64,000 nucleotides of DNA from Promethearchaeota archaeon (GTDB taxonomy: Archaea; Asgardarchaeota; Lokiarchaeia; Sigyniarchaeales; SOKP01), in the NCBI GenBank assembly GCA_048939995.1, contig JBHLOY010000002.1, positions 320,001 through 384,000 on the forward strand. The letters run 5' to 3'. Of the stretch, positions 48,536-58,428 are shown in pieces (within the stretch, counting starts at the first letter, position 1; each line of letters begins with the position of its first letter). The notes below the pieces were generated by a model. The model did no database searches. It was given only the letters and a program-made list of their open reading frames with translations, and was not told the origin of the DNA. Made by a program: the position numbers and the translations under genes.

Positions 48536-48825
48536 TAAATTATTAGGTAATTATGTTTAAGTCTAAGATGCGCCATCTATATATAAAAGAAAAATTAAAT
48601 TTTGTTTCTCAATTTCTCCATTTCTTTATTTTTACTTGTGAAAAGATTTTTAAGACAATTTTGTCTAATATAATTTAAATTTATTAAGTAAATGGAATCT
48701 AGAAAACCACTCCTGCTATTGAAGTAGCTAAGGTACTGCCAGATGTGTTAAAATTGAAAAAACAAATAAAAGGTTAATATTAAAGAGACTTATTTTTTTT
48801 TTCTTTAGATATAATTTTATAAATT

Positions 48826-50532: not shown

Positions 50533-50589
50533 AATTGGTATAAATTTTAAATATTTCCCCGTCTTAATTGCATCTTTGAACTCCAATAT
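50533..50589 (+). repeat. 57-bp TATA-containing element, copy 1 (upstream of proS)
   Basis: 50/57 identical to 55763-55819 by manual alignment. Confidence 0.8.
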
Positions 50590-50669
50590 AAAATAGAATT
50601 CTAATTTAAATTAATTATCACTTTCAGTTTAAAGTCGAAATTAAAAAAAATATGAGGAAATGAAACTAT

Positions 50670-52900: not shown

Positions 52901-55093
52901 TCAAATTTTTCTTTTACTGAAATTTCTCTTTTCCTGATACCATTTGAGACCACCAAGTAATACAAAAATCGGAAAAATCAATGTAATTACTAAGAATGAA
53001 TCCAAATCGTAGGGTGGCACCATATATTCAGCTATAACTGTTACACTTAAAGAAATTAAACCTAGGATACCCGCACCTATCATAAACCCTCCTCCAACAG
53101 TTTTTTTACCAGTAAAACTTAAGATTGCTCCGATTAAACCTAAAACTCCTATAAGTAAAGGCAAAACAAAAGGCAAAACATAAATGGGACGCATCCTTAA
53201 AAAAAAGGGAATCATCTCAACAAACATAGCGGCTATAAGAAGGCCACTCCCAATTACGCCTAATATAGGACTTACCTCTTCTTTACTACTAGCTTTCATC
53301 CTAAGAGGAGCCAATAATTTTTCCCGTCTTTTCCTTGGCACTAAAATTCCACCAATTAGTATTAAGAACGGATAAATCAGTGTAATTAGATATAGCGCAT
53401 CCGTATCGTATGGCGGAAAAAATCTTTCAACTAAAGCCAACACACCTACAAACATTAAACCTAGGCTGCCTGCCCCTATCATAAGGCCTCCTCCAAGACC
53501 TCCTTTAACCTTAAAACTTAAAGTTGCTCCAATTAAGCCTAAAACCCCACAGCCAATAAAAGGCACAAGAGCGAGTCTACTAAAAGAGGGAGTTACTGGT
53601 ACGATAAATGTGGCGACTATAAGAAGAGAACTCCCAATTACGCCAAAAGCAAGACCTGCAGGTTCTTTACCTTTAATTAAAATAACTCTAGAATTTCGCC
53701 AAAATTGTTTTGGCACCAAAAAAATTGTAAGTATGCTGATTGTTACAATTGAAAGTAAACTAATTAGAAAGATTAAGCTATTCACTAGTGCCATTAATGG
53801 TACTGGTTCTATTGGTTCTTCTTGACCATAAGTGCAATCACCATTATCACTAAAAGTATTTCCTTGGCTATTTTCCTCTGAGATGCACTCAAAATTTCCC
53901 AGTAAGGTGTTTCCAGATACGGTATTATAATTACTGTAATAAAATAATATCCCACCTAAATTATTATTTGCGCTGTTTCCCGAAATGATGTTATTATCAG
54001 CATAATATAAATATATCCCAAAGGAGTTGCTATTTGCGGTGTTTCCCGAAATGGTATTATAATTACTCTCAGATAAAGATATCCCAAGTGAATTGTCATT
54101 TGTGATGTTCCCTGAAACTATGCTATTATGGCAATCATCTAATGATATCCCATCAGAGGAATTGTTATTTGCGGTGTTTCCCGAAATGATGTTATTATTA
54201 CAAAGGGCTAAATATATCCCAAGAGAGTTAAAATTCGCGATGTTTCCCAAAACTGTGTTAACATTACAAATAACTAAAATTATCCCTATAAGGTTGTTAC
54301 TTACAGTGTTTCCTGAAATGACATTATTATCACAATTGTATAGATATATTCCATCTGAATTGTTATATGCAGTATTTCCCGAAATGATATTGTTATCACA
54401 ATTGTATAGATATATTCCGTCTGAATTGTTATTTGCGGTATTTCCCGAAATGATATTATTATTAGAAGATTTTAAATGAATCCCAAGTGAATTGTTATTT
54501 GCAATATTCCCCGAAACCATGTTATTATTACAATTGTTTAAACTTATCCCATATGAGTTGTTATTTGCAGTGTTTCCCGATATTGTGTTATTATTGCAAA
54601 TATCTAAATGGATTCCTCTGGCGCTAAATGAACAATTATTTATAATTAATTTTCCTTTAGTTACATAGCTTAATTTGATACCTGCGTTTTGAGATCCAGC
54701 ATTATAAAGCGTACAATTCTCAATCCTAAAGTATACAGCAGAATTTTCAATCAAGATACAATTCCCCGAACCTCCTCCATCTATCACCAAATCTTCTATA
54801 ACAAATGGGTTGTGATAGGTGCCATTCCCAGTACATATTCCTTTTCCTTCCGCAGCCGTCCAATTATTATTAATATGAATTTTTCCCGAGATATCTGAGA
54901 TTTTCAAATCATTTATATCAGGGGTAAGATCATCTTTATAGCCCAAATTTCTGTTATCGTCCATTATATAACTAAAATTAGTGATAACTATTATTGGTAC
55001 AATAAACATAGCAACTATGAGAAGAGAGCTTCCTATTACACCTAAAATAGAACCAACAAGTTCTTTACCTTTGACTTTCATCCGAAGGTTCAA
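52901..55093 (-). CDS. NosD/parallel beta-helix repeat membrane protein
   Basis: Many SGNTANNNS.GI.L repeats; GNGTYHNPFVIEDL cap; three copies of a G(K/E)E...GVIGSSLLIVA TM module. Confidence 0.85.
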   Translation of the reverse strand: MNLRMKVKGKELVGSILGVIGSSLLIVAMFIVPIIVITNFSYIMDDNRNLGYKDDLTPDINDLKISDISGKIHINNNWTAAEGKGICTGNGTYHNPFVIEDLVIDGGGSGNCILIENSAVYFRIENCTLYNAGSQNAGIKLSYVTKGKLIINNCSFSARGIHLDICNNNTISGNTANNNSYGISLNNCNNNMVSGNIANNNSLGIHLKSSNNNIISGNTANNNSDGIYLYNCDNNIISGNTAYNNSDGIYLYNCDNNVISGNTVSNNLIGIILVICNVNTVLGNIANFNSLGIYLALCNNNIISGNTANNNSSDGISLDDCHNSIVSGNITNDNSLGISLSESNYNTISGNTANSNSFGIYLYYADNNIISGNSANNNLGGILFYYSNYNTVSGNTLLGNFECISEENSQGNTFSDNGDCTYGQEEPIEPVPLMALVNSLIFLISLLSIVTISILTIFLVPKQFWRNSRVILIKGKEPAGLAFGVIGSSLLIVATFIVPVTPSFSRLALVPFIGCGVLGLIGATLSFKVKGGLGGGLMIGAGSLGLMFVGVLALVERFFPPYDTDALYLITLIYPFLILIGGILVPRKRREKLLAPLRMKASSKEEVSPILGVIGSGLLIAAMFVEMIPFFLRMRPIYVLPFVLPLLIGVLGLIGAILSFTGKKTVGGGFMIGAGILGLISLSVTVIAEYMVPPYDLDSFLVITLIFPIFVLLGGLKWYQEKRNFSKRKI
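54326..54457 (-). repeat. near-identical 66-bp tandem repeat inside the beta-helix gene
   Basis: Two adjacent units encoding NNSDGIYLYNCDN with few substitutions. Confidence 0.75.
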
Positions 55094-55223
55094 ACACTCT
55101 GTTGTTTTTGGATTTCATTTTCCGAATAAAAATAAATTACATTAGACAACACTGTCTTAAAAACCTTTTTACAAAATTATAAAGATCTTTTTATGAATTT
55201 TTAAAGCTATTTTCTAAACTTAA

Positions 55224-55705
55224 TTAGAGCCACATGCTAATTATGAGGATTTTTGGAAAGAATACGTAAACGATCTTAAAAAGAGATACTATAAAGTCAT
55301 TTTGCAACAAAAAAAAGATGTAAATAATTATATTATTTATATCGATAAGGAACAATATCTCCAGGCTCTTAAAGATAAGATAAAGAAATTAAAAGCAAAA
55401 GGAGATAAAACCAATCTAAGAAATTACGGTTGGCTTATCTTAGGGGTGCTTATGATGCAGATGGATTTAGTAATCGTACAAGCCTTAGTAGTTTTAGTAG
55501 AGAATACTTAAAACAAATTAGAGATATTTTCAACATTCCATATCCAGTTCGTCTACATAAAGAAAGGTATAGCTATCTCGATACAAATGGAAATCTACAT
55601 GTTCGGAAGTCACATTGGGTCTTAACCCTCGGTGTTAATTTGTTTAAGGAGATGACTAATTTATGTTCTGATTATGGTTTGGATTTAAAAAGGAAAAATA
55701 AGTAG
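55224..55705 (+). pseudogene. LAGLIDADG homing endonuclease remnant
   Basis: LAYLRGAYDADG motif; frameshift near 55430 relative to the upstream frame ...KTNLRNYG; no start codon (TAA just before 55224). Confidence 0.7.
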
Positions 55706-55759
55706 AAGGGTAAATAAATTTAATAAAAAAGTTAGTTTCCAGTAAATACTTGTTCTTTT
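55615..55759. repeat. diverged direct repeat, copy 1: endonuclease C-terminus plus duplicate of the fwdA 3' end
   Basis: Plus strand WVLTLGVNLFKEMTNLCSDYGLDLK; minus strand KEQVFTGN*; matches 56574-56704. Confidence 0.85.
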
Positions 55760-55762
55760 ACA

Positions 55763-55819
55763 AATTAGTATAAATCTTAAATATTCCCTCTTCTTAATTG
55801 CATTCTTGAACTCCAATAT
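55763..55819 (+). repeat. 57-bp TATA-containing element, copy 2
   Basis: Matches 50533-50589; ends 24 bp before the ATG at 55844. Confidence 0.8.
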
Positions 55820-55843
55820 TAAGTTTTAATTTGGTGAAATTCA

Positions 55844-56518
55844 ATGAAAAAATCTAAATTAAAAATTCTAATTCCATTAACATTAGGAATCTTGTTCCTT
55901 AGCCTTACCTCAACCGTTAATGTTGTGGCTGATCCTTCAACAGTAACTTTTAGACCATTAAGTCATTGGATACTTAATAATCCCAGAGTGTCCTATGGTT
56001 GGGGAGGCCAACCCCCAACAGGTGATCTGCCTTTATATATCTTAATGTTGAGTTATCCCTGGGCTATACCTGATCCCAATACATATGATGGCTACATAAT
56101 GGAAAGAACGTTGAAAGACGGAAGAGCAGAACTTACTGTTTACATAGAATTCTTCAATGCCCCCTTTTGGCTTTTTGGATTTTTACCGGATATTGGGTTA
56201 TTCCCCCTTGTTCTACAACAAGGTTCTATGATTAATTGTAGGGAAACCACCAAATTTACTCTTCCTGAACCCGGCATGGTAATCCCAAACTTATTTGAAA
56301 TATTATATAATTTTGATTTAATTATGATTTCAATAGAGGGAACGGGTGCTGGGATTTTTACGACGGAGGCTTCTATAATAGGATTTACACCTGGGGCTCA
56401 ATGTAAGGTAGTTGTTAACCAACGTGGCTTTGGGTGGATGGACGTTTTACCTCTACCTCCACCCTTGGAGAATTATATGCCTATAGAACTAATAAACGTT
56501 CTTGAAATTGGGGATTAA
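55844..56518 (+). CDS. secreted hypothetical protein lying between the two direct repeats
   Basis: Signal peptide MKKSKLKILIPLTLGILFLSLTSTVNVVA; GGTGA RBS; T-run after the stop. Confidence 0.8.
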   Translation: MKKSKLKILIPLTLGILFLSLTSTVNVVADPSTVTFRPLSHWILNNPRVSYGWGGQPPTGDLPLYILMLSYPWAIPDPNTYDGYIMERTLKDGRAELTVYIEFFNAPFWLFGFLPDIGLFPLVLQQGSMINCRETTKFTLPEPGMVIPNLFEILYNFDLIMISIEGTGAGIFTTEASIIGFTPGAQCKVVVNQRGFGWMDVLPLPPPLENYMPIELINVLEIGD

Positions 56519-56573
56519 AACAGAGAAAAAAATAGTTATAACTTTTTTTTTTTATCAAGAGATTCCAGAAATG

Positions 56574-56704
56574 TTGGGTGTTATCTTTCAGTGTTGATTT
56601 TTTTAAGGAACTACCTAATTTATCTTCTAATTATGGTTTGGGTTTAAAAGCAAAAATAAATAGATTTAATAAAAAGTTAGTTTCCAGTAAATATTTTCTC
56701 TTTT
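56574..56704. repeat. diverged direct repeat, copy 2: endonuclease C-terminal scrap plus the true fwdA 3' end
   Basis: Plus strand WVLSFSVDFFKELPNLSSNYGLGLK; minus strand KEKIFTGN*. Confidence 0.85.
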
Positions 56705-58428
56705 GGGGCGTAGGCATCTTGGACAGCATAATTGTTAAAGTTGATGCTATAATGATCCCTCCAGCTATGGCGCACATCATCTAACATCTCCTCCATGAGG
56801 CTCTCCTTAAGCTTACCTTCTGCTCGAAGTAAATTCCCCATCGGTGATGCTGTAATCTCTCCGTCTTTCACCACAATTATTCCATCCTTAATTGTATATG
56901 CCGTCGAGCTAAATGCCTTCTCAATATCATGCCCAGTATAATTGTTAGGATCAATCTTATACACTGCCACGTCTCCAATAGCGCCCACACCGAGATGACC
57001 GCGATCTTTCATTCCCAGAATCTTCGAAGTTCCAGCGCGGGTTACCACAGCCAGTTCATAAAGCGAATATTCCCTGTCGATGTCTGCCAACGTAGACGCC
57101 GTGCTTGCTTTCTTATGGACCACATTTTTGAGCATGTCATCTCGAGTTTTCCTATCCATCAACCATTTGAAGGCCATCGGATACGTGGTAAACGGGGCTC
57201 CATTTGGATGGTCGGTCGTAAATCCGATTTGAAAAGGATCCTTTACCAAAAGCATAAGCTCAAGACCAATTGCCCATTGAACCGCATTTACGCTATTTTT
57301 TGCATCAAAAAAATACGGAACTATCCCTGATCCTGATTCTGCTTCAACTTGGCCGTTAACCCACTTAATACCCGGCTTAGATCCCCAACCTGAAAAACCA
57401 CCTAAATGATGGAGAGCAAACTCTCATGCACAGACAAGATGCTCGTCTGTGACCCATGGTCCGTCTCCAGTCATCGTAGTGGTCGCATATTTAGTGAATA
57501 CTACTTGACCGTTATCAATCGTAAGATGCTTATGTGAATTCACATACTCAGCAATTTCTACGGCACCAGAAGTAAAGTCATTCCAATTAGTGCCTCCATA
57601 TGCATTAAATTGACAATGAGTCACATGAAGACTTGTTGTTCGGCTATCACCAGCCTTGATTTTCTCACAGACTTGAAAGGTTTCGAGAGAATGCTTGAAA
57701 TTGCCGGGATGTCCGAGATTGTTGCAATGGACATGAATTGAATGTGGTAATTTCAGAATCTCGTTAACCTTCGCTAGACTCTCAATAATCTGACGAGGAG
57801 TTACATTCCAATGGAAAACAGGATCATTTAAAGATTCACAATTCTTGCCCCAAGCCCAATTTTCAACCCCCCCAGGATTTACAATTTTTATAGCATAGCC
57901 TTTGGTTGCTTGGAGGATCCAATTGACGTATGCGGCGAGCTTATCGATGTCGTTGTCGCGTATATATTTCAGGACGAACCAATTATTTCCATAGATGGGG
58001 AGGGCAGCTTTATCGATGATTGGCATTTCGAGGAATTCTTCATGGGTATGTCGAGCTTCGAGGAGAGGCATTGCGGGTTCGACAGCGGTTGTATAGCCCA
58101 TTTGGGCATATTTATAACCTGTATACCAAGTGCTAAGCACGCTGAACCCGGTACCGGATCGTGTAGTTTTAGTTTTCTTTAGGTTCGATTCGGGCACCTT
58201 GTCTTCAGGTCGTAAAGCTCGTCCGACATTGACTTTAGGTCCAGCAATGTGAGTGTGCATATCAACTCCACCAGGCATTACGACCATTCCAGAAGCATCG
58301 ATTACTTTTGCGTCAGAGTTAACTTTTTCGGCGATAAGTCCATCTTTTATATAGATATCTTTCTTTTCGCCATCGATCTTATTGAGCGGGTCATATACCA
58401 ATCCATTTTTAATGATTAAGTTGCTCAT
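56677..58428 (-). CDS. fwdA: formylmethanofuran dehydrogenase subunit A, intron-interrupted; join(57453..58428, 56677..57422), 573 aa spliced
   Basis: PGGVDMHTHIAG, KIVNPGG, HVHCNNLG, TTMTGDGPW|EFALH, ESGSGIVPY, QWAIGLEL, TTDHPNGAPF. Both ORF-track pieces are in the same frame. Confidence 0.93.
57423..57452 (-). other. 30-nt bulge-helix-bulge mRNA intron in fwdA
   Basis: Exon helix, CAUG/CAUG 4-bp central helix, 3-nt bulges GGU and AGA, 10-bp intron hairpin; contains the in-frame UGA; excision restores the frame. Confidence 0.88.

Follow-up and report, generated by a model that had tools for sequence, protein, structure and literature searches.

A Decayed LAGLIDADG Endonuclease Gene Beside an Intron-Split fwdA Suggests a Route for Mini-Intron Spread in Promethearchaeota

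INTRODUCTION

In a 64,000-nt stretch of a Promethearchaeota (Lokiarchaeia) draft genome (3.75 Mb, 30% G+C), hereafter the window, the gene for formylmethanofuran dehydrogenase subunit A (fwdA) is split by a 30-nt BHB intron and adjoins the remnant of a free-standing LAGLIDADG homing endonuclease gene. Drawing on sequence comparison and on analogy with a phage system, we consider this locus to be probably the dead remains of a bipartite selfish element that worked like collaborative homing. A dozen other conserved genes in Promethearchaeota show the same pairing of nuclease and intron, which suggests a route by which mini-introns could spread.

RESULTS

A 30-nt intron in fwdA

The fwdA gene lies on the minus strand, with exon 1 at 57453–58428, the intron at 57423–57452 and exon 2 at 56677–57422, which ends in a stop codon at 56677–79. 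Each half of the gene matches TIGR03121, and the protein of an intact relative scores above the TIGR03121 cut-off. Across the full span (58428–56677), we observe a single in-frame stop, a UGA inside the 30-nt insert, which interrupts the GDGPW-E motif after the first base of the glutamate codon. The RNA folds into an exon stem, a 4-bp central helix (CAUG/CAUG) flanked on opposite strands by two 3-nt bulges, and an intron stem of 10 bp; only 4 of 200,000 shuffles of the insert reach a comparable structure. The fold is thus the canonical BHB of the 30-nt intron that had been proposed at GDGPW|E from the sequence. Cuts after the second base of each bulge are predicted to excise 57452–57423, which would join GGACCAUGGG to AGUUUGC in the spliced mRNA and yield a 573-aa FwdA containing GDGPW-EF. 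The genome holds two matches to PF01974 for the splicing endonuclease EndA and one to PF01139 for the ligase RtcB, and we infer that the host tRNA splicing endonuclease EndA, together with RtcB, removes the intron from the mRNA. As a census of introns, an ab initio BHB scan of the whole genome is too noisy (665 candidates).

The intron position is occupied in six genomes of two genera (the window genome, G010 and G029 in one; G149, G124 and G138 in the other), and no comparable stop in fwdA was found in ~100 other genomes of the family. When the six copies are aligned, 91% of cells are paired and six pairs are altered on both sides, with a compensatory change from A-U to U-A in the central helix; pairing falls to 26–49% once the partners are slid. 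Two genomes have an fwdA insert at another motif, WAWG|KN: that of G010, its second, is 30 nt long and stop-free (L002:1050–1079), while that of G104 is 31 nt long (L184:5758–5788) and has a nuclease gene upstream, one gene away. Around the GDGPW|E intron, the fwdA of G029 shifts toward the sequence of the window genome, but the shift is short and local, and BHB pairing could also cause it. The exon bases shared near the intron may reflect BHB pairing rather than co-conversion.

The nuclease remnant and a duplicated junction

Converging on fwdA from the plus strand is what remains of a free-standing two-motif LAGLIDADG endonuclease gene (55409–55705). It carries the second LAGLIDADG motif (LAYLRGAYDADG) at 55430–55465 and is without the N-terminal LAGLIDADG half, the ~70-aa C-terminal domain and a start codon. 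Since only the second motif is kept, this copy is a pseudogene of the two-motif family, truncated by deletion at both ends. Pfam alone is insufficient to identify it, and a profile built from the family was needed: the remnant scores 116 bits against this profile, whereas its match to PF14528 lies below the cut-off (E 0.033). A search of the genome with PF14528 gave no match, and a homologous-protein search with the 93-aa fragment found nothing; an exhaustive search gave 47 relatives.

The initial annotation had described a frameshifted, startless LAGLIDADG ORF converging on the 3′ end of fwdA, together with a diverged scrap of its C-terminus abutting the fwdA stop. The family profile bears out the LAGLIDADG assignment, as Pfam does not, and the absence of a start and the convergent orientation stand. 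The frameshift does not, as the startless open frame at 55224–55433 (plus strand) lies outside the element and is unrelated to the family (5 bits against the profile; BLAST E 1.2), and the three frames upstream of 55409, scored singly, give ~0 bits against the profile, the level of shuffled DNA. We therefore reject a frameshifted N-terminus in this region. The scrap is real as well: a second, shorter copy of the junction between the endonuclease end and the fwdA end (56574–56704, plus strand) is 77% identical over 145 nt to 55615–55759 and adjoins the fwdA stop. What had been missed is an orphan fwdA 3′ end, the last eight codons and stop (KEQVFTGN-stop), repeated at 55732–55758 on the minus strand directly behind the larger fragment. 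Given this second 3′ end, the fragment and the scrap are seen to be two copies of a single junction, separated by a 224-aa ORF. A partial second fwdA 3′ end is also observed in G138, downstream of its intron-bearing fwdA, and we interpret the duplicated ends in both genomes as recombination scars.

The 224-aa ORF (55844–56518, plus strand) is probably a passenger; it has no Pfam match, Atlas matches that are all <0.9, and a poor structure model. Its hydrophobic N-terminus is of the signal or membrane type, and its 5′ part is weakly similar at the DNA level to sequences in G141, G131 and G140. Upstream of this ORF, a 60-nt stretch (55763–55822) is 87% identical to 50533–50592, which lies upstream of a prolyl-tRNA-synthetase-like gene, and 55101–55185 is 80% like an inverted stretch at 48623–48710; these repeats are possibly reused promoter regions. 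An ordinary gene divergent from the remnant (52901–55093) encodes a 730-aa membrane protein with a NosD/beta-helix repeat.

The nuclease family

The 47 relatives have two LAGLIDADG motifs, and the acidic catalytic positions are kept in the intact ones. Compared with solved enzymes, the family profile best matches I-HjeMI, I-AniI and I-DmoI, and the top 50 structural matches to the predicted structure of an intact relative (P0004; pLDDT 92.9) are all LAGLIDADG proteins. On the basis of these profile comparisons and this model, we assign to the family the fold of a two-motif LAGLIDADG homing endonuclease. Many members are much extended at the N-terminus (up to ~1750 aa) and carry a conserved, helical domain at the C-terminus; at L181:3–3383, L209:5001–10247 and L088:944–4678, the extensions are acidic and of low complexity, with total lengths of 1100–1750 aa. 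An origin of the remnant as the tail of an unrelated multidomain protein, which the initial annotation had named as an outcome that would refute its proposal, is rejected, as even the longest proteins of the family are this nuclease, extended at the N-terminus. An intein origin is also rejected, there being no Intein_splicing match in the genome and the intact relatives being stand-alone ORFs.

Copies of the family are scattered over 28 of the 42 genomes of the genus, with 0–8 per genome. The nuclease clades largely follow single host genes, and the copies are optional, patchy, site-faithful and often decayed. The window genome has exactly two, both dead, and each flanks an intron-split gene (fwdA and EF-1alpha).

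Nuclease lineages at fwdA

In a tree built from the second half of the nuclease (~100 columns, with the bootstrap not settled), the remnant groups with the G149 protein, P0004 and P0009 (support 97/82). The genes for all three converge on the 3′ end of fwdA, as do those of a sister lineage consisting of G010, G018 and P0012. The G149 nuclease (contig CAZALK010000020.1) lies beside an fwdA with the same GDGPW|E intron, while the fwdA on the P0004 contig is without the intron and its site reads GPW-QYSLHKL, which is unique among 44 loci. The G018 genome and the P0012 contig have a nuclease beside fwdA with no intron at GDGPW|E; in G018, the nuclease is intact, the fwdA is intron-less, and a foreign tract at nt 541–1050 of the gene contains WAWSRNC where WAWG[KR]N is otherwise constant. 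These arrangements are consistent with two targets in fwdA, one for each enzyme lineage, at each of which either an intron or altered codons would prevent cutting.

Counting only loci that extend 2 kb or more downstream of fwdA, we find a downstream nuclease gene at 3/5 intron alleles (window, G010 and G149) versus 1/26 intron-less alleles (p 0.008, for genomes that are kin and not independent). No nuclease lies within 2.9 kb of the intron allele in G029 or within 4.6 kb of that in G138. In the window, the remnants lie 0.8–1.7 kb from the GDGPW|E site.

The EF-1alpha locus

At the second copy in the window genome, the P-loop of EF-1alpha (GHIDHG|KST) is split by a 33-nt BHB-like intron at C11:167345 (L036:7313–7345, minus strand), and a frameshifted two-motif LAGLIDADG gene lies directly upstream (C11:167551–169085). 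A nuclease copy or remnant is found at 4/5 intron alleles of EF-1alpha versus 1/24 intron-less alleles. The DNA upstream of the gene falls into two haplotypes that track the intron and the nuclease, not species kinship: that of the window genome is like those of the more distant intron carriers G029 and G018 and unlike those of its closest relatives, the intron-less G019 and G010.

Association across the family

Insertions in genes near the nucleases were found by homology first, with BHB structure scored afterwards; loose ARAGORN calls, which are mostly spurious, were left out of the association test. In the genus set, 17 of the 81 genes directly adjoining a copy have a 26–36-nt BHB-like insert (3 of the 81 came from loci chosen for fwdA), as compared to 4/224 other genes in the same loci and 1/168 in loci without a copy (5/392 together). 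In a second set of 40 Asgard loci, a mini-intron is found in 11/44 adjacent genes versus 0/47 others. Pooling the two sets gives 28/125 versus 5/439, a ~20-fold enrichment over 13 host genes, for which p-values are overstated because the genomes are kin. The co-occurrence of intron and endonuclease in related genomes, on which the initial annotation had made its proposal depend, is thus found both at fwdA and across the family.

The adjacent intron hosts are fwdA, EF-1alpha, EF-2, an aIF2-gamma-like GTPase, phosphofructokinase, GH38 mannosidase, aldolase, acyl-CoA dehydrogenase, a histone-deacetylase-family protein, corrinoid adenosyltransferase, acetoacetate-CoA ligase, one unnamed gene and, by reading of its motifs, a small GTPase. 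The small GTPase gene (L098:3942–4675 in G012; L241:2139–2840) has up to four introns of 29–31 nt within ~300 bases. In about three-quarters of adjacent genes, no intron was detected by a procedure that requires an intact homologue and ignores tRNA genes.

Introns without a neighboring nuclease

Most known introns of the window genome have no nuclease adjoining them. Near the mini-intron-like inserts in purA (C7:109895–109925), metG (C6:82170–82200), dnaG (C11:487220–487250) and acyl-CoA dehydrogenase (C17:23486–23518), there is no nuclease of the family. In G018, the ortholog of this acyl-CoA dehydrogenase gene carries another intron and adjoins a nuclease gene (L120). The purA intron is common to nine related genomes and the metG intron to three, none with a nuclease within 1.5 kb. 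From these distributions, the purA and metG introns look clade-fixed, whereas those of fwdA and EF-1alpha look patchy, a contrast that fits the loss of nucleases after intron fixation but also other routes of intron gain. In the same genome, which is 98% complete, ARAGORN at its defaults finds only ~20 tRNA genes, more than half of them with introns, which suggests that many multi-intron tRNAs are missed.

DISCUSSION

In the mechanism that we favor for the fwdA locus, a free-standing LAGLIDADG gene, still intact and oriented tail to tail with fwdA, would have encoded an enzyme that cleaved fwdA alleles without the intron, at or close to the conserved GDGPW-EF codons. Repair with the donor as template would then have transferred the nuclease gene, the 30-nt intron and the 3′ part of fwdA to the broken chromosome, joint transfer being suggested by the patchy distribution and the local sequence tracts. 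By splitting the target site, the intron would protect its carrier, and FwdA would still be made if, as the BHB structure and the genes present indicate, EndA and RtcB splice the intron from the mRNA. Once targets had been exhausted, the nuclease gene would decay, leaving a stable intron behind; in the window, this decay is seen directly as the gene fragment and the duplicated junction.

Another possibility, to which we give a clearly lower but still appreciable probability, is that the enzyme cut elsewhere in or near fwdA and that the donor was protected by sequence change, with an independent intron merely carried along in the conversion tract. Such intronless homing would account for G018, where an intact nuclease accompanies WAWSRNC, a foreign tract and no intron, and for the P0004 contig, where the GDGPW site is altered without an intron; that most family copies have no detected intron neighbor also speaks for it. 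The altered codons, however, fall at known intron positions, namely WAWG|KN (split in G010 and G104) and GDGPW|E (split in six genomes), which suggests that these positions are the targets. Moreover, an enrichment confined to the adjacent gene is not easily explained by hitchhiking alone.

It is less probable still that homing is not involved, and that the LAGLIDADG proteins have been domesticated or act as splicing helpers or regulators, or that nucleases and introns both gather at recombination-prone conserved genes. Although the long N-terminal extensions, the conserved C-terminal domain and the many introns that persist without a neighboring nuclease would be in keeping with such roles, the copies are patchy and often broken, their clades track single host genes, and their catalytic acidic residues are conserved. 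In the window genome, furthermore, both nuclease copies are dead while the introns are intact, and thus the nucleases are not needed for splicing. Finally, it is very improbable that the 30-nt insert goes unspliced in an fwdA pseudogene or is an assembly error, given that the exons are undecayed and 84–89% identical to those of relatives, that the insert is present with compensatory changes in six independent assemblies, and that the same kind of insert splits the essential EF-1alpha and metG genes of the window genome.

The collaborative reading of the fwdA locus can be set beside several known systems. LAGLIDADG enzymes such as I-DmoI are encoded inside archaeal rRNA BHB introns. The two-motif LAGLIDADG fold and its association with a BHB intron are common to I-DmoI and the fwdA system, but at fwdA the intron interrupts an mRNA and does not contain the nuclease gene. 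Collaborative homing has been described for F-CphI, a free-standing nuclease beside a group I intron of psbA in cyanophage S-PM2 (Zeng, Bonocora, Shub 2009, as described in PMC6083498). In both cases, a free-standing nuclease gene lies next to a conserved gene containing an ORF-less intron, by which the target would be split, and the joint distribution is patchy. The Promethearchaeota pair differs in that it resides on a cellular archaeal chromosome, that its nuclease is of the LAGLIDADG rather than the Endo VII type, that the fwdA intron is a 30-nt BHB intron, predicted to be protein-spliced, rather than a group I ribozyme, and that the archaeal pairing is found at 13 or more host genes.

The fwdA intron is of the same kind as that of cbf5, whose pre-mRNA contains a BHB intron in Desulfurococcales and Sulfolobales that is described as ancestral and as lost in some lineages (Watanabe 2002; Yokobori 2009, PMC2738675). 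Both are short BHB introns that interrupt a conserved motif in archaeal protein-coding sequence; the fwdA intron differs in its gene and phylum, in being patchy and in its link to a nuclease gene. The seg and mob genes of phage T4, which undergo intronless homing (reviewed in PMC2988022), are intergenic and encode GIY-YIG or HNH nucleases. Like them, the nuclease genes described here are intergenic, their cut sites are presumed to lie in the neighboring gene at distances of hundreds to thousands of bases, and there are carriers with altered target codons; unlike them, they are of the LAGLIDADG type and go together with a BHB intron, which seg/mob homing does not involve. In the literature that we covered, which was mostly open-access, BHB introns in archaeal protein-coding genes are reported for cbf5 only and collaborative homing for phage only, and we did not find any account of archaeal mRNAs whose BHB introns are paired with a free-standing nuclease.

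For the family as a whole, we are evenly divided on a broader reading, in which a large Asgard family of free-standing LAGLIDADG nucleases, with each lineage tied to one conserved gene, spreads and possibly selects for protein-spliced mRNA mini-introns that outlive their nucleases and become fixed. The nuclease family, of which intact relatives exist, is a pool of putative meganucleases with predictable targets. Should the pairing prove real, many core genes that look "broken" in Asgard assemblies have been mis-annotated, and the entry of tiny, ORF-less introns into conserved motifs of archaeal genes is explained. The broader reading, if true, would provide a general way for protein-coding genes to gain introns, among the closest prokaryotic relatives of eukaryotes.
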